A DNA stretch of 64,000 nt from Anaerolineales bacterium (GTDB lineage Bacteria; Chloroflexota; Anaerolineae; Anaerolineales; UBA11858), in NCBI GenBank assembly GCA_024763275.1, contig JANTFT010000002.1, positions 6,002 to 70,001 of the forward strand, read 5' to 3'. Each line of letters begins with the position of its first letter. The stretch's first letter is position 1. The translations under genes and the position numbers were made by a program. Under the pieces are notes generated by a model. The model did no database searches, was not told the DNA's origin, and saw nothing but the letters and a program-made list of their open reading frames with translations. Positions 5,167 through 58,957 of the stretch are shown here, in pieces.

Positions 5167-6507
5167 ATGGACAGAAAATTAACTGGCAAAAGACCCACAT
5201 TCAGCAGCAAACAACCCGCTTTTAACTTCACGCGGGTGTTGATCCTGGTCGCTCTTATTGGAGTGGGTCTGTGGTTTGCCTCTCAGGTGAACGATCCGGA
5301 AGGGAAATTTGAGCCTCTGTTCCTGCCGACCCCTACCGCCACCAGGACCGTGGATTCCCTGGTGCTGGAAGGAGAGGCCTATTTCGAAGCCGGGAAGATC
5401 TATGACCCGGAAGGCAAGGATGCTATCGATGCTTATTATGAAGTGCTGGACCGCTATCCTGACAACGCCCAGGTGCGGGCTGAACTTGCCCGCCTGCTGA
5501 CCTATTCCTCCGCTCTGCTGTCCACCACCGAAGAGCGCACCGAGCGCCTGCGCCAGGCCCGGCAGGAAATCCAGCAGGCCGCTGAGCTGGCGCCAGACGA
5601 CAGCACCGTGCAGGCCATCCGTGCTCTGGTGCTGGATTGGAGTTCCACCTCATCCGCTGCCAGCGATGAAGAAAAACAGGCCTGGCTGAACGAGGCCGAA
5701 CAGGCGGCCAACCTGGCCATCACCCTTGATCCGAACAACAGCCTGGCTCTGGCATTTTATGCGGAAGTGCTGCTGGATCAGAATCAGAAAGCCCAGGCGG
5801 AAGAACATGCCCGTCTGGCGGTCAAACAGGGGCCAGAGCTGATGGACACCCACCGGGTGTATGGCACTGTACTGGAATCCCTGGGGGAATACCGCTATGC
5901 CATTGAAGAGTTTGAAAAGGCAGCGGAGATCAACCCCAACCTCACCTTCCTCTACATTCGCATCGGGGTGATCTACCGGGCCCTTAAGGTCTATGATACC
6001 GCCCTGGATTATTTCGCTAAAGCGATCGCTATCAACAAGTCCAACGGCGTGGAGGATCCCCTGCCCTATATAGCCATCGCCAAGACCTATTCCAGGGATG
6101 GGGAGTTCTTTATCGCTGCCGTAAACGGCGAGAAAGCCATCGCCATCAATCCTACCAACGCGGACACTTACGGGCAGCTGGGGGACATCTATGTCCGGGC
6201 CCGCAATTACGAGGGCGCCCTGCCGGTTTTAAAATGCGCCGTGGTGGGCTGCACTGCGGAGGAGAACGAAGTGGGCGGTGTTGCTGTCCAGGGTCTGGAT
6301 CTGGTGAATTTTGATGTGGCCTATTATTATGCCCGTTATGCTTCTGTGCTGGCCGCTCTCAGCCGTCCGGAGCAGAACTACTGTCCGGAAGCCCTGAAAA
6401 TTCAGGAGGATCTCAAGGCTGCCTTTGGGAGCGATCCCACATTGATGAGCATCGTGGAAGAAAACGAGGCCATCTGCTATCTGCTGGAAGCCACACCCTC
6501 TCCCTGA
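5167..6507 (+). CDS. Membrane-anchored TPR repeat protein, paralogous in architecture to the preceding gene
   Basis: The track ORF 5038..6507 overlaps the previous gene. The ATG at 5167 (MDRKLTGKRP...) precedes a TM helix and TPR repeats. The start is uncertain. Confidence 0.65.
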   Translation: MDRKLTGKRPTFSSKQPAFNFTRVLILVALIGVGLWFASQVNDPEGKFEPLFLPTPTATRTVDSLVLEGEAYFEAGKIYDPEGKDAIDAYYEVLDRYPDNAQVRAELARLLTYSSALLSTTEERTERLRQARQEIQQAAELAPDDSTVQAIRALVLDWSSTSSAASDEEKQAWLNEAEQAANLAITLDPNNSLALAFYAEVLLDQNQKAQAEEHARLAVKQGPELMDTHRVYGTVLESLGEYRYAIEEFEKAAEINPNLTFLYIRIGVIYRALKVYDTALDYFAKAIAINKSNGVEDPLPYIAIAKTYSRDGEFFIAAVNGEKAIAINPTNADTYGQLGDIYVRARNYEGALPVLKCAVVGCTAEENEVGGVAVQGLDLVNFDVAYYYARYASVLAALSRPEQNYCPEALKIQEDLKAAFGSDPTLMSIVEENEAICYLLEATPSP

Positions 6508-10001: not shown

Positions 10002-11642
10002 ATGAGTAAAAACAAATTAAGAATAATTCCCCTGGGAGGACTGGGGGAAGTCGGAAAGAACATGATGGTCTATGAGTACGGGAACAACATTCTCGTGGTC
10101 GATGCCGGATTGATGTTTCCAGACAACGAAATGCTGGGAATTGACTATATCATCCCCGATTTCGAATATCTCAAAGAAAGGAAGGACCAGGTCAGGGGTA
10201 TAGTCATCACCCACGGCCACATGGATCATGTCGGGGCACTGGGACACGTCCTTGAGGAGCTGAACGTTCCTCTTTATGCCACCCCACTCACCAAAGGTTT
10301 GATCGAGGTCAGCCTTTCGGAGAAGGGCCTGTTGGACAAGACCACAATCAAAACAGTCCATGCTGGCGAGTCAGTTAAAATCGGTCCCTTTGAAGTGGAA
10401 TTCTTCCACGTCTGCCACTCCATACCCGACAGCGTCGGGCTGGGAATCACCTGCCCGGATGGCCTGGTTGTGCACACTGGAGATTACAAATTCGACTCCA
10501 CGCCGGTGGACGGTTGGCCAACAGATTTCTCCAAACTGGCGGAGTTTGCCGGCCGGGGCGTGCTGGCCCTGCTGGCGGATTCCACCAACGCCGATAAACC
10601 CGGCTGGACCCCCTCTGAAATGGTCATCAACGACTCTCTGGACAAGGTCTTCCGCTCCGCCCCCGGACGTATCATCGTGGCCTCCTTCGCTTCACTGGTA
10701 TCACGGATGCAGCAGGTCATCGACACAGCCGATCGATACGGCAGGAAGGTGGCCTTTGTGGGCTACAGCATGAAGCAGAACTCCAAGATGGCCAAGAAGC
10801 TGGGCTATCTTGATTTTCCGTCTGACATTGAGGTCGGTATTGACGAGGCCCTGAATATGAAGCCTAAAGACGTGGTGCTGATGGCCACCGGCTCCCAGGG
10901 CGAACCCTACTCGGTCATGGGCAGACTGGCCAGAGGAACAAATAAAAAGTTCGAGCTGATCAAGGATGACACCATTGTGCTCTCTTCCCACGCCATTCCC
11001 GGGAACGAGGAATCGGTCTTCAAGACCATCAATTCCCTCTTCCGGAGAGGTGCCAACGTGGTCTACGAGCCCCTGGCAGGCGGCGTGCACGTCTCGGGCC
11101 ATGCCAACCAGGATGAGATGAAGCTGATGTTGAACATGGTCAGCCCCAAATATCTGATCCCCATCCACGGGGAACTACGCCACCTCAAACAGCATGCCAT
11201 CCTGGCAGAGGAAACCGGCTTCCCGGCGGACAATGTACTGGTAATCGAGAACGGCCATGTAATTGAGTTTGAAGACGGCGAACTGGTGATCAAAGACCGC
11301 ATTCCGGGCAGCTACGTGTTCGTGGACGGCTCGCGGGTGGGTGAGATCGGACCCTCGGTCGTCAAGGAGCGGGAACAGCTTTCCCAGGACGGCGTGGTGC
11401 TGATCAGCCTGGTCCTGGACAGCAAGGGCAAACTGCACGAAGAGCCGGAGATCATTTCCCGCGGATTTGTATTCAAACACGGCGAAGACGACGTCATTGA
11501 GGAAACCCGCCAGAAAGTGATGGAAATCGTTGAAAAATCCCCCGGGGATCTGCACAGCCAGGTAGTACAATCCGTCCGATCGTTCCTGTACAGCAAGACC
11601 AAGAAACGGCCGGTGGTATTGATGGCCATGAGCTGGATCTAA
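10002..11642 (+). CDS. rnj: Ribonuclease J (beta-CASP metallo-beta-lactamase RNase)
   Basis: 546 aa: LRIIPLGGLGEVGKNM...ITHGHMDHVGAL...beta-CASP and C-terminal domain layout. Confidence 0.92.
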   Translation: MSKNKLRIIPLGGLGEVGKNMMVYEYGNNILVVDAGLMFPDNEMLGIDYIIPDFEYLKERKDQVRGIVITHGHMDHVGALGHVLEELNVPLYATPLTKGLIEVSLSEKGLLDKTTIKTVHAGESVKIGPFEVEFFHVCHSIPDSVGLGITCPDGLVVHTGDYKFDSTPVDGWPTDFSKLAEFAGRGVLALLADSTNADKPGWTPSEMVINDSLDKVFRSAPGRIIVASFASLVSRMQQVIDTADRYGRKVAFVGYSMKQNSKMAKKLGYLDFPSDIEVGIDEALNMKPKDVVLMATGSQGEPYSVMGRLARGTNKKFELIKDDTIVLSSHAIPGNEESVFKTINSLFRRGANVVYEPLAGGVHVSGHANQDEMKLMLNMVSPKYLIPIHGELRHLKQHAILAEETGFPADNVLVIENGHVIEFEDGELVIKDRIPGSYVFVDGSRVGEIGPSVVKEREQLSQDGVVLISLVLDSKGKLHEEPEIISRGFVFKHGEDDVIEETRQKVMEIVEKSPGDLHSQVVQSVRSFLYSKTKKRPVVLMAMSWI

Positions 11643-11665: not shown

Positions 11666-11697
11666 AAAAAGGCGGTCCTATTGGCCGCTTTTTTTTT
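11666..11697. terminator. Bidirectional terminator between rnj and pcm
   Basis: GCGGTC-ctatt-GGCCGC is flanked by AAAAA upstream and T9 downstream. It sits between convergent genes. Confidence 0.5.
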
Positions 11698-11707
11698 GTA
11701 CATCCTA

Positions 11708-12349
11708 CTAGCCGTGTTCTCCGATCAGGGGCACAAAAGCGACCGGTGTCAGATCCTCCCGCCGGATCTCCCCGCCTTCGCGCCGGTAAAGCTGGAGCAG
11801 CTGCCCCCCCCGTCCTCCAACGGGCATGATCAGCCTGCCTCCCTCTGCCAGCTGGTCCAGGAGCGGCGGGGGTACTAAGGGGGCAGCAGCGGTGACTATC
11901 ACTGCTTGAAAGGGGGCCTGCTCGGGCAGGCCCTGAGTGCCGTCACCCTGGTGGATGATGATGTTGTCATAGCCCAGCCCTTCCAGCACCCGGCCAGCGA
12001 GCTCGGCCAGCTCAGGGTGCCTTTCAATGGTGTGGACTTCACTGGCCAGCAAGCTGAGAATAGCCGCCTGGTAGCCGGAGCCAGTGCCTATCTCCAACAC
12101 CTTCTCATCGCCCTGTAAAGCAAGCTTGTCGGTCATATAGGCAACGATATAGGGCTGGGAAATGGTCTGCCCCAGGCCGATGGATAGGGGGCCATCCTGA
12201 TAGGCGTAAACCCTCTGTTCGGGGGGCACGAATAAATGGCGGGGGACCTCCAGAAAGGCTTCCAGGACACGCGGGGAGGTGATCCCCCGGGCAGCAATCT
12301 GCCTTTCCACCATCCGCCTGCGGGCGGATTCAAAGTCAATTGTGCTCAC
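11708..12349 (-). CDS. pcm: Protein-L-isoaspartate O-methyltransferase
   Basis: RRRMVERQIAARGI...VPRHLFVP...VLEIGTGSGYQAA. The start is ambiguous (GTG 12349, ATG 12313 or the track start 12394). Confidence 0.85.
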   Translation of the reverse strand: MSTIDFESARRRMVERQIAARGITSPRVLEAFLEVPRHLFVPPEQRVYAYQDGPLSIGLGQTISQPYIVAYMTDKLALQGDEKVLEIGTGSGYQAAILSLLASEVHTIERHPELAELAGRVLEGLGYDNIIIHQGDGTQGLPEQAPFQAVIVTAAAPLVPPPLLDQLAEGGRLIMPVGGRGGQLLQLYRREGGEIRREDLTPVAFVPLIGEHG

Positions 12350-12366
12350 AGGTCCATCCAGACAGT

Positions 12367-13416
12367 TCAGTTCAACAGGTAAGCCATGACCCATTGGGAG
12401 GTGGCCAGCAGCGCTTCGAGATGGGTGCGTTCATAATTATGGGAAGCGTCCACTCCCGGTCCGATCAGTGCCACCGCTACGTCACCGCCGGCCCGCCAGT
12501 AGGCTTCACCGTCGGAGCCGTAATGGGGATAGATATCCACCCGGTAAGGAACCTCGTATTCATCCGCCAGGGAGCGCAGCCGCTGGCTGAGGTCGTGGTG
12601 GTAAGGGCCGCCGGAGTCTTTGACGCACAGCGTGGCGTGAAATTCATCGGAGGTTTGACCGTCCCCAACAGCGGCCATGTCCACGGCCACCAGCTCTCTG
12701 ATCCCCTCCGGCAGGCCGGCCGCTGCCCCGTGCCCAACCTCTTCGTAATTGCTGAAATGAAAGACTGTGTCCTGGACCGGCTGCAGGCCGGCGTCCTGCA
12801 GGGATTGAATGGCAGCCAGCAGGCAGGCAACGCCCGCTTTATCGTCCAGATGGCGGGAGCGCACAAATCCCTGGTTGATCTCCATCCGGGGATCGAAAGC
12901 CACGAAATCACCCACTTTGACCCCGGCCTGGCGGGTTTCCTCAGCGGAGCTGGAAACCAGGTCCAGGCGCACTTCCAGGGTATCCTCATTTCTCTCCGTG
13001 CCGCTGACATCCTTGCCGTAGACATGCCCGGAGGACTTGTGGAGCAGGATGCTTCCCCGGACGGGTTCCCCTCCGCTGGCCAGCACGGTGCAGCCTTCCC
13101 CTTCGATGGTATTCCAGGCGTAACTCCCTAGCTGACTCAGCTTCAGGCGGCCATTGCTTTTGATCTCCTTGACCATCGCGCCCAGGGTGTCGACGTGGGC
13201 GGTCAGGGCCCGCGGGGAGGTTTTTAGATCACCCGTCCAGCTGGCGATCAGGGCGCCCTTGACGCTGCGGTGGTAGCTGAACCCCGGCAAATTCTCCAGC
13301 TTCCCCTCCAGGAAGGAAATCGCTCCTTCTGTATAACCAGTAGGGCTGGGTATGGACAACAATTCTTGCAGAGTATCCAGCAGATATTCCCGGTCGATTT
13401 GCGGCAGTTTTTTCAT
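12367..13416 (-). CDS. M42 family metallopeptidase (FrvX/YsdC-like aminopeptidase)
   Basis: 349 aa: LSIPSPTGYTEG...HVDTLGAMVKEI...RHLDDKAGVA...EEVGHGAA...DxxH motif layout typical of M42. Confidence 0.8.
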   Translation of the reverse strand: MKKLPQIDREYLLDTLQELLSIPSPTGYTEGAISFLEGKLENLPGFSYHRSVKGALIASWTGDLKTSPRALTAHVDTLGAMVKEIKSNGRLKLSQLGSYAWNTIEGEGCTVLASGGEPVRGSILLHKSSGHVYGKDVSGTERNEDTLEVRLDLVSSSAEETRQAGVKVGDFVAFDPRMEINQGFVRSRHLDDKAGVACLLAAIQSLQDAGLQPVQDTVFHFSNYEEVGHGAAAGLPEGIRELVAVDMAAVGDGQTSDEFHATLCVKDSGGPYHHDLSQRLRSLADEYEVPYRVDIYPHYGSDGEAYWRAGGDVAVALIGPGVDASHNYERTHLEALLATSQWVMAYLLN

Positions 13417-15547: not shown

Positions 15548-16486
15548 ATGAAAAAAAAACTGATGATATTGATACTCGTGATTGGATTATTGATTATTCT
15601 TCCAGGTATTGGATGCAGCAGTGGGCCAAAGAAAGATGCGGGAGATCAAATTATTGACGATTTGATCTCCGTATCCCAAAAGACCTCCACAGCTCAAGCC
15701 AAGGCCTCGGAAACAGAACCAACCCCAATTCCAACACCCCGCTATGATCCCTTCCAGGTCATCCTGGATTACGGTGGCTTTAACGATGAGTTGAAAGAAT
15801 ATATCCTTGATCTGGCATACATGGACCCCCACGCAGACTGGATCTACAGCATGGCAGGGATGATCGTCTCGGAAGAGATGGCGGAAACAGATATTCTCTT
15901 TCATACACAACTGTTCTTGATACTTGCAGGATCCCAAATTGAAGCCTTTTTTGGAAACACTCTCTTCCCTTGCGGGGAAGACATCGAAGGTGGCTTTGTA
16001 GTCTGCTCGTACGATCCTTTACCAATGGAGCCCGGAGGGATCTATCTTGTCTTGATGAAATTAGCAGAACCTGTTCCAACTTCCAGCTCGGAGCGGTTCT
16101 ATACCTACTCGGTCGTTTTTGATGCAGATGGTGACGAAAGTAATAACTTCCAATTCAACCCTCCTTACGACTGGGATTTTTTCCAGAACACAGACCGCTG
16201 GTATATGCTGGATTACGCACCAACAACTGGGTGGATGTTGAATGTAAACGATATTGTCAGTGGTGAGTTTGGAGCTCCATCAGCAACCCGTGCAGTTGTG
16301 ATGGGTGATATTGTGGCCTTCTTCATCCCCGCTTCGGAATTCTCTGTTGACTCACCGGGGTACAGAGTCACTGCGTTCGGCCATGACGGCACCTACGCAC
16401 CAGAAACTTCTTGTGGCGATGTCAGTGGCTCGGACCCAACAGAACCGCTACTGCATTTCGAAGGGGATCTGATCACCTTAGAATAG
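15548..16486 (+). CDS. Lipoprotein of unknown function (paralog B)
   Basis: The ATG at 15548 gives MKKKLMILILVIGLLIILPGIGCSS (lipobox). It shares YTY..VFDADG..NNFQ..PY.WD..QNTD.WY.LDY and RAVV....FIPA.EFSV..PG.RV..FG with paralog A. Confidence 0.8.
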   Translation: MKKKLMILILVIGLLIILPGIGCSSGPKKDAGDQIIDDLISVSQKTSTAQAKASETEPTPIPTPRYDPFQVILDYGGFNDELKEYILDLAYMDPHADWIYSMAGMIVSEEMAETDILFHTQLFLILAGSQIEAFFGNTLFPCGEDIEGGFVVCSYDPLPMEPGGIYLVLMKLAEPVPTSSSERFYTYSVVFDADGDESNNFQFNPPYDWDFFQNTDRWYMLDYAPTTGWMLNVNDIVSGEFGAPSATRAVVMGDIVAFFIPASEFSVDSPGYRVTAFGHDGTYAPETSCGDVSGSDPTEPLLHFEGDLITLE

Positions 16487-45588: not shown

Positions 45589-47133
45589 TTATTCAAGCAG
45601 GAATTTTTGATCTCCGAAACAAATCTCATCCCCGGCCCGCAAACTTTCCGGGGTGTTGGCGGAGATCCGCTGGTTGTTGAGAAAAGTCCCGTTCTTGCTG
45701 CGCAGGTCGATCAAGGTCAGCGTGTTTCCTTCCAGGCGGATCAGGGCATGTGTTCGAGAGCATTTGGTGCTTTCCAATTTGATGTCGGACTGGTCACTGC
45801 GCCCAGCGATCATGATCTCGTTCTCGATGTCCACCACAGACCCATTCTCGTGAACCAGGTGCCAGCCGGACTTTCTTTCAGGGATGTATTTCTTTTCTTC
45901 CAGTTCTCTTTCCGGAAGGGAATTAGTAAAAGCCAAGCCGATTCCGCGGACAACCATTTCCTGCGGTTTTTCGGGGAAGATCACCTTTTGAATGCCAAAA
46001 CGCTGACGAATATCAGCAAGAATACCGGGAATGAGCACTCCTCCACCCAGCAGAATGACCTTACCTATTTTGTCATCCTCGATCTTCATGCTTTCCAGCC
46101 CGCGGCTGATCACTTCCAGGAAAGCGTTATCCAGTGGTTGGCTGAGTCGGGAAAAGTCCTCCAGACTGAGATCGATGTTCCCGCGGAACACCTGCCCATC
46201 ATCCATCACCAGGGAAAATGACCCCAATCCCGAAAGTGGATCCAATGTTTCCTCTCCCCGGATGGCCTGCTGAGCTAGGGTTTCCTTGACCATCTGGCTG
46301 TAAAGGCGCAGAACCAGGAAAGCTGAAGGGTCTGCGGACAAGCTCTGAGCTGGAATCTCCAGCTGTTTGGACAGGTGCTGAGCGAGCAGGGCATCGTATA
46401 ACCCCCCTCCGAAAGGCTCTTCGTAGCGGTTGATATTAACTATAGCGCCTGTCTTTGGGTTGTATTTCCTGGCGTAAAGTGTTGTAGTACTGCCACCCAC
46501 ATCGATAATCAGATTGATGTCCTGGGGATGAAAGCTGTCCAGCAGCTCCTGGTCCCGGAGGCCGAGGATCACTCCTTCGGATTCAGGGACAAAATGCACC
46601 CGATCGGAGACATTCTGAGGGAAGCATTCCTCGGTCACGTGATAAAAATCTTCGAAGATCTTGCCTTCGTTCTCGGTTCGCCAGCGGTCCGGATAGGCAA
46701 TCGAAAAATGGACACGCTCATCAAACGGTTTTGAATTGTACTTTTCCACCCGAATCTGGTCGATCAGCGATCTCAGCAGCAGCCGGGTGTAAAGCAGGGC
46801 TTCGAAATGGCTGTAACGGCTCTGGTGGGGTTCAGGGTTCTCTGTTAAATGGGAGCCGATGGAGGGTTTAAAGAAATCCCGGATCCGCTTGCGAGCTTCC
46901 ACGTCCTCCAGGTAACCAAGTGCCGTTTCGCCAATCGCCATCAGGTCGGTCCCGTCCGGAGTAAGCAGCAGCACAGCGGGCAGCCGGCGGTCAGAGAAAT
47001 TGGCCAGCGGAGAAGAAAGGGGGCTGGTAACATGCCGGGCCTTTTCCCCGTCAAAGTGATATTCCATGCGGTACAGCCGCCAATTAACGGTTCCGCAATC
47101 CAGGGCATACAAGGTGATCTTCTCGCCGGCCAT
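45589..47133 (-). CDS. Actin/Hsp70-fold (ASKHA) ATPase fused to a C-terminal FHA domain
   Basis: Phosphate-1 is LYALDCGTVNWR, phosphate-2 is IIDVGGSTTT and the adenosine motif is VILLGGGVLIPGI. The C-terminus reads IAGRS...D..L....SR.HA.I......L.DL.S.NGT.LN (FHA). I prefer the start at ATG 47131-47133 over the track start at 47226. Confidence 0.8.
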   Translation of the reverse strand: MAGEKITLYALDCGTVNWRLYRMEYHFDGEKARHVTSPLSSPLANFSDRRLPAVLLLTPDGTDLMAIGETALGYLEDVEARKRIRDFFKPSIGSHLTENPEPHQSRYSHFEALLYTRLLLRSLIDQIRVEKYNSKPFDERVHFSIAYPDRWRTENEGKIFEDFYHVTEECFPQNVSDRVHFVPESEGVILGLRDQELLDSFHPQDINLIIDVGGSTTTLYARKYNPKTGAIVNINRYEEPFGGGLYDALLAQHLSKQLEIPAQSLSADPSAFLVLRLYSQMVKETLAQQAIRGEETLDPLSGLGSFSLVMDDGQVFRGNIDLSLEDFSRLSQPLDNAFLEVISRGLESMKIEDDKIGKVILLGGGVLIPGILADIRQRFGIQKVIFPEKPQEMVVRGIGLAFTNSLPERELEEKKYIPERKSGWHLVHENGSVVDIENEIMIAGRSDQSDIKLESTKCSRTHALIRLEGNTLTLIDLRSKNGTFLNNQRISANTPESLRAGDEICFGDQKFLLE

Positions 47134-47372
47134 AGGACTATTATTATATACGCCTTTTGGAGCTCTGAAAACGCCCTTTTCTGGTTCCACCGGGCATACC
47201 AGGAACTGGCTGGCGCTGATAAACAAATTATCCCTGTCCCGGAACGGCTCTGCAGGGTCCAGAATAGGCCCATTGTCGCATCTAAATCTACTATAATTGT
47301 CCCAGGAAGAATACCTCTGGGAGAAGCTTAAACCAGGGTGAAGTAACCCTAACTCAGGGCAAGAGAGGTGCT

Positions 47373-52611: not shown

Positions 52612-54102
52612 TTACTCCTCTTCAGAAGGAGCTTCTTCAGCAGGACTCGGCTCTTCCTCAGGGGATGCCTCTTGCTCCTCAGCGCCCTCGGCTTCAGGTT
52701 CTGGTTCCTCTTCAGGTGATGCTTCCTGCTCCTCGGCGATCTCAGCTTCGGGTTCAGACTCCTCAGCAGAGGATGCCTCCTGCTCCTCGGCGATTTCGGC
52801 AGCAGGTTCTTCCTCTGCATTCGGTTCCCCTTCAGCGGTCTCCTCGCTGACTGCCTCTGGTTCGGGTTCCTCCGGACTGGCCAGGATCTTTTCCAGGCCC
52901 CCTTCCATGGTCAGCTCTTCCTGGATTTGCTCCAGGTCTACAGCAGCATACTCGTCAGAATCCACTTTTTCAAGGCTGAGCCCGATGCGGTGTCGTTCCA
53001 TATCCAGGCTGATCACCCGCAGGGCCAGGGTTTCACCGACGCTGACCACCTCAGAAGGATGGCCAACCCGGTCCATACTCAATTCCGAAATATGAATCAA
53101 GCCTTCCAGGTCAGTGTTCTCAATACGTGCAAAGGCACCAAAATCGGTCAAATTGGTGATGGTCCCCTGGATCAGCTGGCCTTCCTTGATTTCCTCGGCT
53201 TTTTCAATCCAGGGATTATCCTGCAGCCGTCTCATTGACAGGCCAATCCGGCGTTTTTCTTCATCGATGCTGATGACCTCTACCTCAAGCTCCTGTCCAA
53301 CCTTCACCAGATCGCTGGGGTGGTCGACATGATCCCAGGAAAGCTCTGAGAGGTGAACCAAGCCATCCACACCCTGGATATTGACAAAGGCGCCAAAATC
53401 TGCCAGGCTGCTGACATAGCCGGTGACCCGGTCACCCACGGACAGGTTGCTCAGCAGCTGGTCCTTGATGGCTTCTCGAGTTTCACCAATGGCATCCCGC
53501 TCAGACAAAATCAAGCGTTGACGCGATCGGTCAACTTCGATGACCTTGAGTGTGATCTCCTGACCGATGACTTCACTCCAGCGGTCTTCTGGCGAACCAC
53601 CGTCTCCTTCCCGGAAAACACTTACCAGCGAGCCGGGCACAAACCCGCGCAGCTGTCCAACCGGAACCAGCAGGCCGCCCTTGTTGTAGCCTTCCACAAC
53701 AGTGGTGATGACCTCTCCTGATTCCAGCTTCTCTTCAACGACTTCCCAATCTTTTTCTTCTTGAGCCCGGGTGTAGGACAGCACAACATGCCCGTTTATA
53801 TCCTCGGGTTCAAGGACATAGACGCTGATCTCCTCTCCAACTTTAAAATCGTTCAGCGTCTGGGGGTTGATCTGTTCCAGTTCCCGGCCGGCAATCAGTC
53901 CATCAGCTTTTGACTGCACGTCGATCAGGATCTCATTGGGAGTGATGGCGGTAATCACACCCTTGCGGATATCTCCCTTTTCAGGGATGTTACCCAGTCC
54001 CAATCCTTCCTGGGCTAGCAGGGTTTCCATATCCATAAGTTCTTCAGGGGCTGAATTATCACTCAGTGTATCTCCCCCTTGGTGGGACTTCATTTCTTCC
54101 AT
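52612..54102 (-). CDS. rpsA: 30S ribosomal protein S1 (four S1 domains) with a repetitive acidic C-terminal extension
   Basis: Repeated G..V.G.V......G..V.. S1 modules. The tail reads AEIAEEQEAS...EPE repeated. Confidence 0.9.
   Translation of the reverse strand: MEEMKSHQGGDTLSDNSAPEELMDMETLLAQEGLGLGNIPEKGDIRKGVITAITPNEILIDVQSKADGLIAGRELEQINPQTLNDFKVGEEISVYVLEPEDINGHVVLSYTRAQEEKDWEVVEEKLESGEVITTVVEGYNKGGLLVPVGQLRGFVPGSLVSVFREGDGGSPEDRWSEVIGQEITLKVIEVDRSRQRLILSERDAIGETREAIKDQLLSNLSVGDRVTGYVSSLADFGAFVNIQGVDGLVHLSELSWDHVDHPSDLVKVGQELEVEVISIDEEKRRIGLSMRRLQDNPWIEKAEEIKEGQLIQGTITNLTDFGAFARIENTDLEGLIHISELSMDRVGHPSEVVSVGETLALRVISLDMERHRIGLSLEKVDSDEYAAVDLEQIQEELTMEGGLEKILASPEEPEPEAVSEETAEGEPNAEEEPAAEIAEEQEASSAEESEPEAEIAEEQEASPEEEPEPEAEGAEEQEASPEEEPSPAEEAPSEEE
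52664..52825 (-). repeat. Three imperfect 54-bp tandem repeats inside the rpsA 3' end
   Basis: Unit starts (plus strand, gatgc..) are at 52664, 52718 and 52772. Each encodes an 18-aa AE(I/G)AEEQEAS(P/S).EE.EPE unit. Confidence 0.8.
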
Positions 54103-54164: not shown

Positions 54165-54269
54165 CCCTTTGTGGTAAGATAGAGTCGGAGAAAAAAATTC
54201 TAATTATTATGACGTAATTGACTTTTATTAGTGATCCCGGGGGGTTCCCGGCTTGATCCAAGGATCTCT

Positions 54270-55388
54270 ATGGCAGCAATCTATCCTTTTACGGCTATTG
54301 TAGGACAGCAGCGCATGAAGCGCGCCCTGATCCTGAACGCAGTGAACACCCGCATCGGCGGCGTCCTCATTCGCGGTGAGCGGGGTACGGCTAAATCCAC
54401 TGCCGCCCGGGCTCTGGCTGCCCTGCTGCCCAAAGTAGAGACTTTTTCGGACTGCCGTTTTGGTTGTGATCCCAAACGACCCTCAACCTGGTGCACGGAA
54501 TGCCGCGAGAAATCCAAGAACGGCGCTGAACGCAAGGTGGAAATGCTCCCCACTCCCTTTGTGAACCTGCCGGTCTCAGCCACAGAAGACCGGGTGGTAG
54601 GCACACTTGATATCGAAAAAGCCATTCAAAAAGGTGAACGCCGCTTTGAGCCCGGTGTACTGGCTGACGCCAACCGGGGGTTGCTGTATATCGATGAGGT
54701 CAACCTGCTGGATGACCACGTGGTTGACCTGCTGCTGGACTCCGCTGCCATGGGCATGAACATTGTCGAGCGGGAAGGCATCAGCTTTTCCCACCCGGCC
54801 CGGTTCATCCTGGTGGGCACTATGAATCCCGAAGAAGGAGACCTCCGGCCCCAGCTGCTGGACCGCTTTGCTCTCTCGGTTGACATCAGGGGCATCCGCG
54901 ACACCCGTGAGCGGGTGCTGATCATGGAGCGCCACCTGGCATATGAAGAGGATCCAGAGGCTTTCCGGGAGGAATGGCTTCCCAAAGAGCAGGAGCTGTC
55001 TGAGCAGATCAAACGCGCCAGGGAGCTGCTGCCTGAAGTCCGGTACTCCTCCCGCAATCTGGTTGACATCGCCAACTTGAGCACCTCGCTGCATGTGGAT
55101 GGACACCGTTCTGACCTGGTGATTTTAAAGACTGCCAGGGCGCATGCGGCGTTCGAGGGTAGAAAAGCCATCACCGGCCGCGATATCGGCCTGGCAGCAG
55201 AGCTGGCCTACCCTCACAGGATCAAACGTGGCCCTTTCCAGCAGTCAGAGATCTCCGCTGAAGAGCTGGCCGAAAAGATCGAACAGCTGGCAGGAGGTTC
55301 CGCAGAAGGGGAAGGCGAGGTAGCTGAAGGCGATCAACCTTCCGAGGGGAGGGAGGGGGAAAACGGGGATAAAAAAAAACTCTCGTAA
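54270..55388 (+). CDS. ChlI/BchI-like AAA+ ATPase (Mg-chelatase subunit I family) with an acidic C-terminal tail ending in an A9 tract
   Basis: The ATG at 54270 follows AAGGA. YPFTAIVGQQRMKRALILNAV, Walker A GERGTAKST, Walker B LLYIDEVNLL and a Cys-rich insert CRFGCD...CTEC. The tail reads AEGEGEVAEGDQPSEGREGENGDKKKLS*. Confidence 0.85.
   Translation: MAAIYPFTAIVGQQRMKRALILNAVNTRIGGVLIRGERGTAKSTAARALAALLPKVETFSDCRFGCDPKRPSTWCTECREKSKNGAERKVEMLPTPFVNLPVSATEDRVVGTLDIEKAIQKGERRFEPGVLADANRGLLYIDEVNLLDDHVVDLLLDSAAMGMNIVEREGISFSHPARFILVGTMNPEEGDLRPQLLDRFALSVDIRGIRDTRERVLIMERHLAYEEDPEAFREEWLPKEQELSEQIKRARELLPEVRYSSRNLVDIANLSTSLHVDGHRSDLVILKTARAHAAFEGRKAITGRDIGLAAELAYPHRIKRGPFQQSEISAEELAEKIEQLAGGSAEGEGEVAEGDQPSEGREGENGDKKKLS
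55371..55379 (+). repeat. A9 homopolymer (A AAA AAA slippery heptamer at 55373-55379) at the junction of the ChlI-like and VWA reading frames
   Basis: Read directly: gat aaa aaa aaa ctc tcg taa in the chlI frame. The G-rich SD-like tract GAGGGGAGGGAGGGGGA lies at 55344-55360. Confidence 0.9.
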
Positions 55389-56329
55389 ACACCGTAGCTG
55401 ATGGCTCTCACCTGGAAGTTCCCGCAGACGCAGGCAGCGGGGATGTCTTCGAGGCCACCAGTTCGACCTGGTGGGAAGGCGGCAACCCGGTAAAGATTGG
55501 CGATACCATTGATCCCGATAAAATAGAAGCTCCCCTTGACCATCAGAACCGTCGTTCCAGTGGGCGCAGATCCCGGACCAAAACAGAGACCAAGCGCGGC
55601 AGATACATCCAGTCCCGACCGGCCAAAGGCGATCTTTCCGATATTGCCTTTGACGCCACCATCCGGGCCGCAGCCCCATTTCAGAAAGAACGCCACTCGC
55701 CGGATGACTCCCTGGCTTTTTCCATCCGCAATAACGATCTACAGCGCAAGGTGCGCGTCAAACAGACAGCCAACCTGATCCTGTTTGTGGTAGACGCCTC
55801 CTGGTCAATGGCCGTGGCAGAGCGGATGAGTGCCGCCAAAGGAGCTGTGCTCTCTCTGCTGACGGATGCTTATCAGCGCCGGGACAGGGTGGGCATGGTC
55901 GTTTTCCAAAAAGACCGGGCTCAGGTGGTGCTTCCCCCCACCAACTCGATCGAGCTGGCCCGGCGCTACCTGGCAGATATCCCCATTGGCGGGAAAACCC
56001 CCCTCTCAGCCGGATTGAATCTGGCCTATGAGGTCATCAAGCGGGAGGAGCTGGCCCACCCCGAGATCCAATCGCTGATGATCCTGCTGACTGACGGGGT
56101 GGGCAACGTCTCCATGACCAGGATGCCTCCCCAGGAAGAAGCCTATAAGATCGCCGAGAAGTTTGCCGCCGATAAGATTCCCGGAGTGGTCATCAACATG
56201 GAACATAAGGAATTCGACAAAGGCCTGGCCCACGAGATCGCCAATCACCTGGATGCTTCCTATTACTGCCTGTCCGACCTGCAAGCTGAAAAGCTGCTGC
56301 AAACCGTTAAAGGAGAAATCGGCTACTAA
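55373..56329 (+). CDS. ChlD/BchD-type VWA (MIDAS) domain reading frame, open from 55373; the first ATG/GTG/TTG is GTG 55751
   Basis: Own translation of 55379-55750 gives TLVNTVADGS...GRRSRTKTETKRGRYIQSRP...DIAFDATIRAAAPFQ...LQRK, followed by VRVKQTANLILFVVDASWSMA (MIDAS DxSxS). The track lists only 55751..56329. Confidence 0.7.
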   Translation, partial: KKTLVNTVADGSHLEVPADAGSGDVFEATSSTWWEGGNPVKIGDTIDPDKIEAPLDHQNRRSSGRRSRTKTETKRGRYIQSRPAKGDLSDIAFDATIRAAAPFQKERHSPDDSLAFSIRNNDLQRKVRVKQTANLILFVVDASWSMAVAERMSAAKGAVLSLLTDAYQRRDRVGMVVFQKDRAQVVLPPTNSIELARRYLADIPIGGKTPLSAGLNLAYEVIKREELAHPEIQSLMILLTDGVGNVSMTRMPPQEEAYKIAEKFAADKIPGVVINMEHKEFDKGLAHEIANHLDASYYCLSDLQAEKLLQTVKGEIGY

Positions 56330-56383: not shown

Positions 56384-58957
56384 ATGATCCCGATCTCCCT
56401 CTCGCTGGAAGGATTTCTCAGTTATAAAGATCCGGTGAAAATCGACTTCACCAGCTTTAGTCTGGCCTGCATCAGCGGTGAGAATGGGGCCGGGAAAAGC
56501 TCGATCCTGGATGGTATCACCTGGGCTCTTTTCGGGCGGGCCAGGAAGCACGACGAGTCGGTCATCAACCTGGACTCAGACCGGGCGGTGGTGACCCTGA
56601 TCTTCGAGTACGAGGGAAATCAATACCGGGTCACCCGCACCAATCCCCGCGGAGATACCAGGTCGGTTTCACTTGATATTCTTTCCGCTGAGGAGAATGG
56701 CGGGGCACCACGCTGGAACCCATTATCTGAGCGAACCCTGCGGGAAACCGATTCCAGGATCGTTGAGATCCTCCGCCTGGATTACGAATCCTTTGTAAAT
56801 GCTTCTTTTTTCCTGCAGGGCGCGGCTGACCAGTTCACCCAGCAAACCCCCTCCGCCAGGAAGCAGATCCTGTCCCAGATCCTGGGGCTGGAGATCTGGG
56901 AAACCTACCGCCTGCGCACCCTGGAGAACAGAAGGCAGGCAGATAGCGAGCTGGTCCGGCTGGAGGGCAGAATTGCCGAGATCACCGCTGAGCTGGCAGA
57001 GGAAGAAGAGCGGAAAAAGCAGCTCAAATCCCTGGAAAAAGAGCTTGCGGAAGCTCAGCGCGACCGCCAGAAAGCCGAAAAAGCCCTCGAGAATCTCCAA
57101 TCCCGATTGTCGTCCCTGGAGGAACAGGGCCGCCTGGTTGAGAAGGCAGCTGTTCATCTGGAGGAAAACAGGGATAAAATCGCCCGGGCTGAGGATAAGC
57201 TCGCCCAGCGCCTTGAAGAGCGTGGGGATTACCAGAAGATCCTCAACCAGACAGAATCCATCCAGCGATCCTATCAAAAGTGGCTGTCCTCCCAGAAGTC
57301 GTTGGCTGCCTGGGAAGCTACCGCGGAAAAGTTCCGGGAAAGCGAGATTAAAAGGCAGGACCCCCTGCTTAAGATCGCCGCTGAAAAGGCCCGTCTGCTC
57401 CAGGAGGAAACCAGTCTGCTGTCCCGCCAGGAGGAGCTTGAGGACAATCTGACCCGGGTCCCCCATCTCAAAGCCGAGATCAAAGACCTTCAAGAAGAAA
57501 TCAAGCGTGCCCGGGAAGAGATCAGCCGTCGCGACGGGAAAAAGGGTGAATTGGAAGCCGCCCGCCAAAAGCAGGCAGACGCCAAAGCAGAAAATCCCCG
57601 CCTGTACAAAGAGATGCAGGATCTTAAAAAGCGCATTCAGGAGCTGGAGGAAACTGAGGGCGCCTCGTGCCCGCTTTGTGGACGTGAGCTCTCCGAGCAG
57701 GACAGGCTTTCCCTGATCGAGGATCTGCAGGTGGAAGGCAAAGTACTGGGAGACCGCTACCGTGAGAACCAGGCGACCCTCAATGAGGCGGATCGGGTTG
57801 TCAGGGAGCTGCAGCTGGAAATCACCGAGTTGAGCCTGGCAGAGAACAGGCTCCGATCCCTGCAGGTTGAGGTGAACAAGCTGGAACACCAGCTGACCTC
57901 TCTGGAGGAGGAGAAGAAGAAGTGGGATAAGAAATACAAAAAAGACCTGGAAAAAATCCAGGGTATTCTCCAGAAAGAATCCTATGCCCAGGAGGCCCGG
58001 AAGGAGCTGGGGGTAATCAATGCCGAGCTGAAAGCCATCGGCTACGACGCCGCAGAACATGACCGGGTCAGGGAATTCAGCAGCCAGGGAGCAGCCATCC
58101 AGGCTAAAAAGGCAGATCTCGACAAAGCCGAGGCCGCTCTGAAGCCCCTGAATCGGGAGATTGCCGAGCTGCAGGAACAGTTGGAGCAGGACAGGAAAAG
58201 CCTGGATCGGGAACAGGCTGAATACGACCGGGCAAGTGAACGGCTGGAACAAGCCCGTCGGGAAGCTCCTGACACACGCCAGGCTGAGGAAGACCTGCTC
58301 GACCTCAAGGAGAGAGAGAACATCCTCCAGCGCGAGGTGGGGGCCGCCCTTCAGAAGGTCGCTGTTCTGGAAGGGCAAAAAGGACGCCTGAGCGAACTCG
58401 AAACCCAGCGGGAGGAATTATCGCGGCGAGTGATGACCTACAGGCAGCTGGAAGCCGCCTTTGGGAAGGATGGTGTGCCAGCTCTGCTTATCGAACAGGC
58501 ACTGCCCAATATAGAAACCAAAGCCAACCAGGTCCTCGATAAATTAACTGGCGGGGATATGTCCGTGCGATTCATCACCCAGCGGGAGTACAAATCAACC
58601 AGCCGGGAGGATAAAAAAGAGACCCTGGATATCCAGATCAGAGATCAAGCAGGGATCCGCGATTATGAGATGTACTCCGGGGGTGAATCCTTCCGGATCA
58701 ACTTCGCCATTCGTTTAGCACTTTCCCATATCCTGGCTCAGCGGGCAGGGGCCAGACTGCAAACACTGGTGATCGACGAAGGCTTCGGGAGCCAGGACTC
58801 TCTGGGAAGACAGCGTCTGATCGAGGCCATCAACCTGGTGCAGGATGACTTTGAGAAAATCCTGGTGATCACTCACATGGAAGAGATCAAGGAAGCCTTT
58901 TCATCCCAGCTGCTGGTGGAAAAAACACCCCGGGGATCCCGGGTAACTTTGGTATAA
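56384..58957 (+). CDS. sbcC: SbcC/Rad50-like SMC-family ATPase with a central CxxC zinc hook
   Basis: N-terminal Walker A GENGAGKSSILD, a long coiled coil, the hook GASCPLCGREL, the signature YSGGESF and Walker B LVIDEGFG. No sbcD is adjacent. Confidence 0.85.
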   Translation: MIPISLSLEGFLSYKDPVKIDFTSFSLACISGENGAGKSSILDGITWALFGRARKHDESVINLDSDRAVVTLIFEYEGNQYRVTRTNPRGDTRSVSLDILSAEENGGAPRWNPLSERTLRETDSRIVEILRLDYESFVNASFFLQGAADQFTQQTPSARKQILSQILGLEIWETYRLRTLENRRQADSELVRLEGRIAEITAELAEEEERKKQLKSLEKELAEAQRDRQKAEKALENLQSRLSSLEEQGRLVEKAAVHLEENRDKIARAEDKLAQRLEERGDYQKILNQTESIQRSYQKWLSSQKSLAAWEATAEKFRESEIKRQDPLLKIAAEKARLLQEETSLLSRQEELEDNLTRVPHLKAEIKDLQEEIKRAREEISRRDGKKGELEAARQKQADAKAENPRLYKEMQDLKKRIQELEETEGASCPLCGRELSEQDRLSLIEDLQVEGKVLGDRYRENQATLNEADRVVRELQLEITELSLAENRLRSLQVEVNKLEHQLTSLEEEKKKWDKKYKKDLEKIQGILQKESYAQEARKELGVINAELKAIGYDAAEHDRVREFSSQGAAIQAKKADLDKAEAALKPLNREIAELQEQLEQDRKSLDREQAEYDRASERLEQARREAPDTRQAEEDLLDLKERENILQREVGAALQKVAVLEGQKGRLSELETQREELSRRVMTYRQLEAAFGKDGVPALLIEQALPNIETKANQVLDKLTGGDMSVRFITQREYKSTSREDKKETLDIQIRDQAGIRDYEMYSGGESFRINFAIRLALSHILAQRAGARLQTLVIDEGFGSQDSLGRQRLIEAINLVQDDFEKILVITHMEEIKEAFSSQLLVEKTPRGSRVTLV

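Follow-up and report, generated by a model that had tools for sequence, protein, structure and literature searches.

A chlD-Type Gene Split at a Conserved A-Run in an Anaerolineales Bacterium and the Probable Expression of Two AAA+ Proteins from One Locus

The DNA analyzed here (the window: 64,000 nucleotides [nt], positions 6,002 to 70,001 of the forward strand of contig JANTFT010000002.1, GenBank assembly GCA_024763275.1, Anaerolineales bacterium) contains an open reading frame (ORF) for a ChlI-like AAA+ ATPase that is followed, in the -1 frame, by an ORF with a VWA domain, and the two meet in a run of nine A residues (A9). Together they form a chlD-type gene that is a member of the published fs-chlD (frameshifted chlD) class, and the phenomenon has already been described. 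Programmed expression of two products from this one locus is very probable on the comparative evidence given below. The fuller statement, that the fs-chlD gene of the window gives rise to two proteins by a mainly transcriptional mechanism, is favored with only modest confidence. The case is an ordinary one for the field apart from the level of slippage and the role of the complex.

One gene in two reading frames

The unity of the two ORFs was evident from the NCBIfam profile TIGR02442 (putative cobaltochelatase, ChlD-type medium subunit). The separate halves scored 510.9 and 271.9 bits, both below the cutoff of 779.45, with ORF2 covering profile positions 386 to 640. The conceptual -1 fusion of 686 amino acids (aa) scored 786.7 bits, above the cutoff, and covered positions 1 to 640 of 641. 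Because the halves fail and the fusion passes, both ORFs are taken to be one chlD-type gene with a single frame break in the A-run. The order of elements in the fusion (AAA+ module, linker, and VWA domain with the metal ion-dependent adhesion site [MIDAS] motif DxSxS) is the layout of a ChlD/BchD-type medium subunit. The features of the locus are as follows (SD, Shine-Dalgarno).

54270..55388, + strand: ORF1, zero frame, encoding a ChlI-like AAA+ ATPase whose tail is acidic and rich in Gly and Glu; standard decoding gives the short product (372 aa)
54375..54398, + strand: P-loop GERGTAKS, a Walker A variant with Ala replacing the Gly before Lys; read from the sequence
55344..55360, + strand: G-rich SD-like tract GAGGGGAGGGAGGGGGA, within the coding sequence of the Gly/Glu linker; a conserved stimulatory role is improbable
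55370..55388, + strand: frame-overlap window, between the -1-frame TAA (55370-55372) and the zero-frame TAA (55386-55388)
55371..55379, + strand: A9 slippery run, putative site of programmed frame change, with the in-phase heptamer A_AAA_AAA at 55373-55379
55379..56329, + strand: ORF2, -1 frame, ChlD-type linker and VWA/integrin-I domain; 316 codons after the shift
55401..55403, + strand: incidental zero-frame ATG within the -1-frame codons gAT Ggc (Asp-Gly); the ORF that it opens has 30 codons
55793..55807, + strand: MIDAS motif in the VWA domain (pattern DxSxS, here D-A-S-W-S); read from the sequence

The likely start of ORF1 is ATG 54270, with an in-frame GTG at 54231 as a possible upstream alternative. 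Its 3' end reads GAT AAA AAA AAA CTC TCG TAA (..GDKKKLS*), and the stop at 55386-55388 lies 6 nt past the A9 run, i.e., after two further codons. The -1 frame is open from 55373, inside the run, up to the TAA stop at 56327-56329, and joining both halves requires a shift within 55373-55385; the equivalent overlap window of the closest orthologs measures 13 to 16 nt. ATG, GTG, and TTG are absent from the -1 frame for 126 codons, the first of them being GTG 55751, which lies 14 codons ahead of the MIDAS motif. The predicted products are 372 aa long in the zero frame and 686 aa long in the -1 fusion (junction ..GDKKK/TLVNTV..). An earlier reading of the letters alone (here, the sequence-only reading) had reported the ..GDKKKLS* end, the A9 run, the open -1 frame at 55373-56329, the lack of a start codon before GTG 55751, and the heptamer with a zero-frame stop two codons on, and each of these was confirmed directly in the sequence.

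Both halves could be assigned to known families. The ORF1 product matched AAA_lid_2, Mg_chelatase, and AAA_5 in Pfam, reached 425 bits against TIGR02030 (BchI-ChlI; cutoff, 467), under the cutoff, and aligned with the ChlI/BchI crystal and cryo-electron microscopy structures 8osf, 1g8p, and 6l8d in PDB at E values of ∼1e-100. ORF2 matched VWA_2 and VWA in Pfam, as well as the BchD integrin-I domain 2x31_A (E, 8e-23). The Walker B pattern hhhhDE and the MIDAS pattern DxSxS were present in 77/77 loci compared, and the canonical P-loop pattern G..G.GK[ST] was missing in 76/77; the P-loop of the window, GERGTAKS, resembles that of ChlD more than that of ChlI. No record was returned when the ChlI-like product, taken from either start, was looked up by its exact sequence.

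A side observation concerns the AAA+ module, into which a four-cysteine motif, C-x4-C-x10-C-x2-C (DCRFGCDPKRPSTWCTEC), is inserted (window 54453-54512, + strand; residues 62 to 81 of the short product). The motif is kept in 76/77 orthologs and may be a zinc-ribbon-like or redox element.

For annotation, a single recoded chlD-type gene should replace the two ORFs. Left unjoined, the VWA half is given an artificial start at GTG 55751 and loses ∼124 conserved residues.

Conservation of the A-run in split and fused orthologs

A scan of one genome per GTDB species retrieved 80 loci from metagenome-assembled genomes (MAGs) of Anaerolineales or other Chloroflexota, 63 to 91% identical to the gene of the window, and reading frames were surveyed by tblastn in 77 complete copies (76 species-level orthologs and the window). 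The VWA half was found in the -1 frame in 57/77 copies (56 orthologs and the window), in the same frame as the AAA+ half in 19/77, and in the +1 frame in 1/77, the last being a long-read MAG that carries another break upstream. Clean, uninterrupted ORFs of 679 to 690 aa were present at 13 of the 19 same-frame loci (L001 to L010 and L014 to L016). Among the split loci whose AAA+ half is at least 83% identical, 27/27 were of the -1 type, the window included. In a neighbor-joining (NJ) tree without support values, fused forms branched among the split ones at about 8 separate positions.

Six orthologs from long-read "MFD" MAGs (L011, L012, L013, L017, L019, and L045) had additional stops or frame breaks outside the A-run. 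These breaks are probably homopolymer assembly errors, and the six loci were left out of the statistics. The A-run of L011 and L013 behaves as in the -1 type, with a second break 166 to 268 nt further on.

Alignment of orthologous loci, which the sequence-only reading had proposed as a check, gave a uniform result for the split form. All 57 split copies have the run in the overlap, as A9 at 35 loci and as A10 at 22, and a zero-frame stop follows 1 to 21 nt beyond the run, mostly within 1 to 6 nt, in a surrounding linker that is highly variable. The base after the A10 runs is G in 22/22 cases, and the zero-frame reading is A_AAA_AAG in 19/22. With respect to the zero frame, the run starts in phases 0, 1, and 2 at 28, 26, and 3 split loci, respectively. 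The 13 clean fused loci carry A8 to A10 at the same linker position (e.g., 5110-5118 in L001), and at all of them (100%) both other frames stop 4 to 34 nt downstream of the run; the null expectation, taken from off-frame positions drawn at random from these genes, is a stop within 34 nt in 37.5% of cases. The +1 frame of the split genes is also closed within 34 nt in 95%. Where close relatives differ by A9 versus A10 (e.g., L002 versus L003), the differences are frame-keeping substitutions at the edge of the run.

The longest A-run elsewhere in the same genes is usually 4 to 7 residues (one is 9), and AAA makes up 63% of their Lys codons. Because AAA is only 63% of Lys codons and A-runs elsewhere are shorter, the A-run is, as judged from these comparisons, selected at the nucleotide level.

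The -1 frame past the run behaves as protein-coding sequence. Over 130 gap-free codons after the run in 21 species, variability at codon positions 1, 2, and 3 was 0.12, 0.07, and 0.40, respectively. A conserved reading of the -1 frame, T-[LV]-[VA]-[SN]-[ST]-V, begins ahead of the zero-frame stop, and the zero-frame tail varies among orthologs (LS*, HS*, RW*, R*, and L*). Conserved protein blocks of the startless region include DIAFDATIRAAAPFQ and RRSSGRRS.T..E..RGRYI. By this pattern, coding in the -1 frame begins with the first codon past the run. The earlier impression that the startless codons read like real protein was therefore borne out, both by the variability of the three codon positions and by the TIGR02442 match from position 386 on. 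No ATG, GTG, or TTG occurs in the -1 frame within 90 nt of the run in 26/57 split loci.

Conserved stimulators of frameshifting were not found at the site. The G-rich tract at 55344-55360 that had been likened to the dnaX stimulator is present in the window, but an SD-like role for it was not borne out: an SD-like pentamer 4 to 25 nt upstream of the run was found in only 17/57 loci by a loose definition and 8/57 by a strict one and is not conserved. Downstream segments of 101 nt (z, -0.23) and 61 nt (z, +1.73) fold no better than shuffled sequences, and no Rfam frameshift element matches at the site.

A match to the cobalamin riboswitch RF00174 at window 55317-55528 (+ strand) extends across the recoding site, in a gene of putative cobaltochelatase type. 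At 14.7 bits (gathering score, 31.5; E, 0.12 to 0.13) it was judged a chance match and was ruled out on its 18-nt and 28-nt insertions, its many broken pairs, and its failure to recur in L018, L024, and L050 (E up to 10).

Proposed expression and competing explanations

The gene anatomy, the conservation of the site, and the constraint on coding in both frames are observed; the production of two proteins, their ratio, the level of slippage, and the function of the complex are what we infer for this locus. Standard decoding of 54270-55388 would give the 372-aa ChlI-like AAA+ ATPase. In a fraction of expression events, the frame would move by -1 at the A9 run, and the N-terminal 370 residues (..GDKKK), common to both products, would then be followed by TLVNTV..., the conserved linker, and the VWA/MIDAS domain of a 686-aa ChlD-like protein. 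BchI/BchD and CobS/CobT suggest, by analogy, that the two products would form a mixed AAA+ complex. The main cause of the frame change would be slippage of RNA polymerase on the A9/T9 hybrid, which would give some transcripts one additional A in the manner of Thermus dnaX, and ribosomal -1 slippage on A_AAA_AAA may contribute. A mixed pool of A(n-1), A(n), and A(n+1) transcripts would supply both proteins whichever state the DNA has. The idea of the sequence-only reading that one locus could yield both an I-like subunit (∼372 aa) and a D-like subunit with I, linker, and VWA parts (∼686 aa) is thus supported by the conservation of the split, the run, and the near zero-frame stop in 57/77 copies, the constraint on the -1 frame, and the TIGR02442 score of the fusion. 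The locus would add one more well-supported case in which two subunits of an AAA+ complex come from a single gene.

The published fs-chlD class provides the closest comparison. Antonov et al. (2013; PMC3711429) described a cluster of -1 "magnesium chelatase" fs-genes with poly-A sites in bacteria, including Herpetosiphon, and in archaea; in E. coli reporters, shifting reached 10%, 40%, and 63% for A7, A9, and A11, respectively (PMC3711429). In the review of Atkins et al. (2016), the A_AAA_AAR site is described as being under purifying selection (PMC5009743). [quoted passage not shown] (2022; PMC9227772), and the latter authors list fs-chlD in the Anaerolineae Brevefilum fermentans, Anaerolinea thermophila, Ornatilinea, Longilinea, and Levilinea. 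The gene of the window has the ChlI-like AAA+ ORF and the VWA ORF at a -1 offset, a poly-A run in the overlap, a near zero-frame stop, a signal conserved among orthologs, and a conceptual fusion that is a full-length ChlD-type protein; as in the published class, short and medium subunits would come from one gene. Two differences stand out. Downstream RNA structure, which fs-chlD signals "usually" include, although it is not obligatory (PMC9227772), was not detectable here, and the mechanism is called ribosomal in the papers, whereas polymerase slippage accounts at least equally well for what is seen in this clade. Since the closest ortholog among the 80 loci retrieved is 91% identical, the gene of the window itself is probably absent from the listed cases.

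The two dnaX systems serve as models for the two mechanisms. E. coli dnaX uses a -1 ribosomal frameshift at A_AAA_AAG with SD and stem-loop stimulators. The locus of the window resembles it in the in-phase A-rich heptamer, in the upstream G-rich SD-like tract, and in the prospect of two products from one AAA+ gene, and it differs in that the SD-like tract is not conserved, no downstream hairpin is seen, and no Rfam frameshift element is present. The A9 of Thermus dnaX has been attributed to transcriptional slippage (as cited in PMC3711429). Shared with Thermus thermophilus dnaX are an A9 run in an AAA+ gene, alternative frames that close right past the run, and predicted long and short proteins with a common N terminus in one complex (the complex being proposed here by analogy). 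Unlike Thermus dnaX, where the genomic frame encodes the long product, as it does in the 13 fused orthologs, the genomic frame of the window encodes the short product, with slippage required for the long one, and the protein family is a different one.

If expression is programmed, a transcriptional mechanism appears moderately probable and a purely ribosomal one a lesser, though substantial, possibility. The split genes have a run of about the length of the RNA-DNA hybrid (at least 9), independent of phase, and the non-VWA frames close within 34 nt in 95 to 100% of the split and fused genes. At the DNA level, the uniform A9 of 12/12 metagenome contigs (see below) is consistent with such slippage. 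We lean toward polymerase slippage because the run is at least 9 in all split genes and variable in phase; because there is no conserved SD-like tract, no 3' structure, and no Rfam frameshift element; because fused orthologs keep the run with both other frames closed and the +1 frame of the split genes is closed as well; and because fused forms occur at about 8 places in the NJ tree. The comparative set (57 split and 13 fused genes, all with A8 to A10) provides a testable argument on transcriptional versus translational recoding, a question that published work left open.

Several points weigh against this preference. Any run of at least 9 contains an in-phase A_AAA_AAA or A_AAA_AAG heptamer, so that ribosomal frameshifting explains the split genes equally well, and A_AAA_AAG, the reading in most of the A10 loci, is a classic ribosomal site. 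Published work on fs-chlD calls the mechanism ribosomal (PMC9227772, PMC5009743). Linker composition could be partly behind the close off-frame stops, the orthologs are phylogenetically nonindependent and were placed in an NJ tree without support values, and neither cobN nor chlH was found within the 64-kb window.

Purely ribosomal -1 programmed frameshifting, in which two Lys-tRNAs would re-pair on A_AAA_AAA (55373-55379) of a faithful A9 mRNA, would yield the same two proteins, and the product predicted from polymerase insertion of one A is identical in sequence to that from -1 tRNA slippage. This explanation can draw on the heptamer being in phase in the window and in every ortholog, on the 19/22 A10 loci with A_AAA_AAG, on the mechanism used in the published fs-chlD descriptions, and, in the window itself, on the SD-like GGAGGGGGA 13 nt upstream. 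Yet seven A's suffice for a ribosomal site and 0/57 split genes have fewer than 9; the SD-like tract is not conserved, and there is no 3' stem-loop. Retention of the run in fused orthologs with the -1 and +1 frames closed nearby is left unexplained, and reporter shifting that rises from A7 to A11 (PMC3711429) is more typical of polymerase slippage. We regard a purely ribosomal mechanism as possible but rather doubtful. In nine more distant orthologs (L046, L049, L055, L060, L062, L066, L070, L072, and L077), GTGA lies 4 nt past the A10 run, so that a -1-frame GTG overlaps the zero-frame TGA, and translational coupling could add to slippage, or replace it, in this subclade. Such coupling also lends something to the view that the halves are two separate genes, with the VWA protein of the window starting at GTG 55751, at a noncanonical codon, by reinitiation, or at ATG 55401 with one missing base. 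GTG 55751 does exist, but the 124 codons before it are conserved as protein and match TIGR02442 from position 386, -1-frame conservation begins ahead of the zero-frame stop, and a start codon within 90 nt of the run is lacking at 26/57 loci. The sequence-only reading had noted correctly that ATG 55401 is in the zero frame and opens a 30-codon ORF; its suggestion that one extra base would make this ATG the start of a separate VWA gene did not hold, since the ATG is found in this genome only (the orthologs have GAC, GAT, or GAA followed by codons starting with A or G) and -1 coding starts upstream of it. Separate genes are thus very unlikely.

The other explanations concern the DNA itself. An error of sequencing or assembly, or else the recent loss of 1 nt from an ordinary fused chlD whose true state is A10, had been raised by the sequence-only reading and has some initial appeal: homopolymers are error prone, A10 here would give an uninterrupted 686-aa ORF, and several long-read MAG orthologs have extra frame breaks elsewhere. 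A metagenome scan was made with the flanks of the subclade as the pattern and A8 to A11 allowed (a stricter earlier pattern had given no matches), and the run was exactly A9 in 12/12 independent contigs. Another 56 species-level genomes, produced by many projects on many platforms, have the same -1 split, the zero-frame stop right past the run is conserved, and both halves are under purifying selection. The error or indel reading is effectively refuted, and we give it hardly any weight. Poly-A tracts are slippery for DNA polymerase too (PMC3711429), and changes between the split and the fused state have occurred several times in evolution; both facts would suit phase variation, in which changes of run length during replication would switch a population between split and fused chlD. 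The run is nevertheless fixed at A9 in the 12/12 contigs of the subclade, the 27/27 split loci with at least 83% AAA+-half identity are of the -1 type, and the A9/A10 differences of close relatives keep the frame, which makes phase variation highly improbable, slightly more so than separate genes. The interrupted frame and the lack of a large chelatase subunit gene in the window would also be expected of a decaying chlD pseudogene. Strong purifying selection acts on both halves in dozens of species, however, Walker B and MIDAS are intact in 77/77 loci, and the only frame break is always at the run; conservation thus effectively refutes the pseudogene reading, to which we assign the least probability of all.

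Neighborhood, possible role, and other observations in the window

The longest ORF in the window encodes 857 aa, and the window therefore contains no cobN or chlH. No large subunit gene (cobN or chlH) was found in the conserved flanks of the orthologs, and no second chlI or VWA copy was found in the window or in the ortholog flanks. The conserved neighbors have housekeeping functions: rpsA and clpC upstream and genes for a Rad50/SbcC-like ATPase, metK, dnaN, and a deoxynucleoside kinase downstream. In domain architecture and sequence, the products resemble BchI/BchD, ChlI/ChlD, and the ChlID partner of the CobN cobaltochelatase (TIGR02442). The resemblance to Mg-chelatase and cobaltochelatase does not extend to the surroundings, since cobN, chlH, and tetrapyrrole genes were not found in the 64-kb window or in the conserved neighborhood. 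Kuznetsov et al. (2022) report fs-chlD-bearing Anaerolineae/Chloroflexi without a large subunit and without B12 and chlorophyll pathways (PMC9227772). The complex would thus belong to bacteria without a detected large chelatase subunit, none being present in the window and none reported in related genomes.

Taken together, these features allow a broader proposition, which we offer tentatively and hold to be somewhat short of probable: that the frame of chlD in Anaerolineales is changed by RNA polymerase and not by the ribosome, that the genomic ground state has flipped about 8 times without loss of function, and that the complex works without a CobN/ChlH-type large subunit, in a role outside tetrapyrrole metallation. 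Repeated flips of the ground state would be tolerated because split and fused genes alike would give both proteins through a heterogeneous transcript pool.

The Rad50/SbcC-like ATPase downstream (window 56384-58957, + strand; 857 aa) has a zinc hook and starts 54 nt past the chlD stop. It is kept in 35/70 loci having at least 2.5 kb of downstream sequence, and no SbcD/Mre11-like gene lies between it and chlD. The homologue of ribosomal protein S1 encoded upstream (496 aa; four S1 domains) ends in a long acidic tail of repetitive units, one example being EPEAEIAEEQEAS; this C-terminal tail is encoded at window 52612-52870 (- strand).

One further A9 run, the only other one in the window, lies at 15551-15559 and makes up codons 2 to 4 (MKKK) of an apparent lipoprotein signal peptide (MKKKLMILILVIGLLIILPGIGC; window 15549-15620, + strand). 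It is probably just a Lys-rich n-region, and it is also potentially slippery. A T9 run at 11689-11697 lies in the 65-nt gap between the convergent ORFs 10002-11642 (+ strand) and 11708-12394 (- strand) and may be part of a terminator. Finally, a 545-aa ORF at window 45589-47226 (- strand) combines an HSP70-like region with a C-terminal FHA domain, an unusual pairing.

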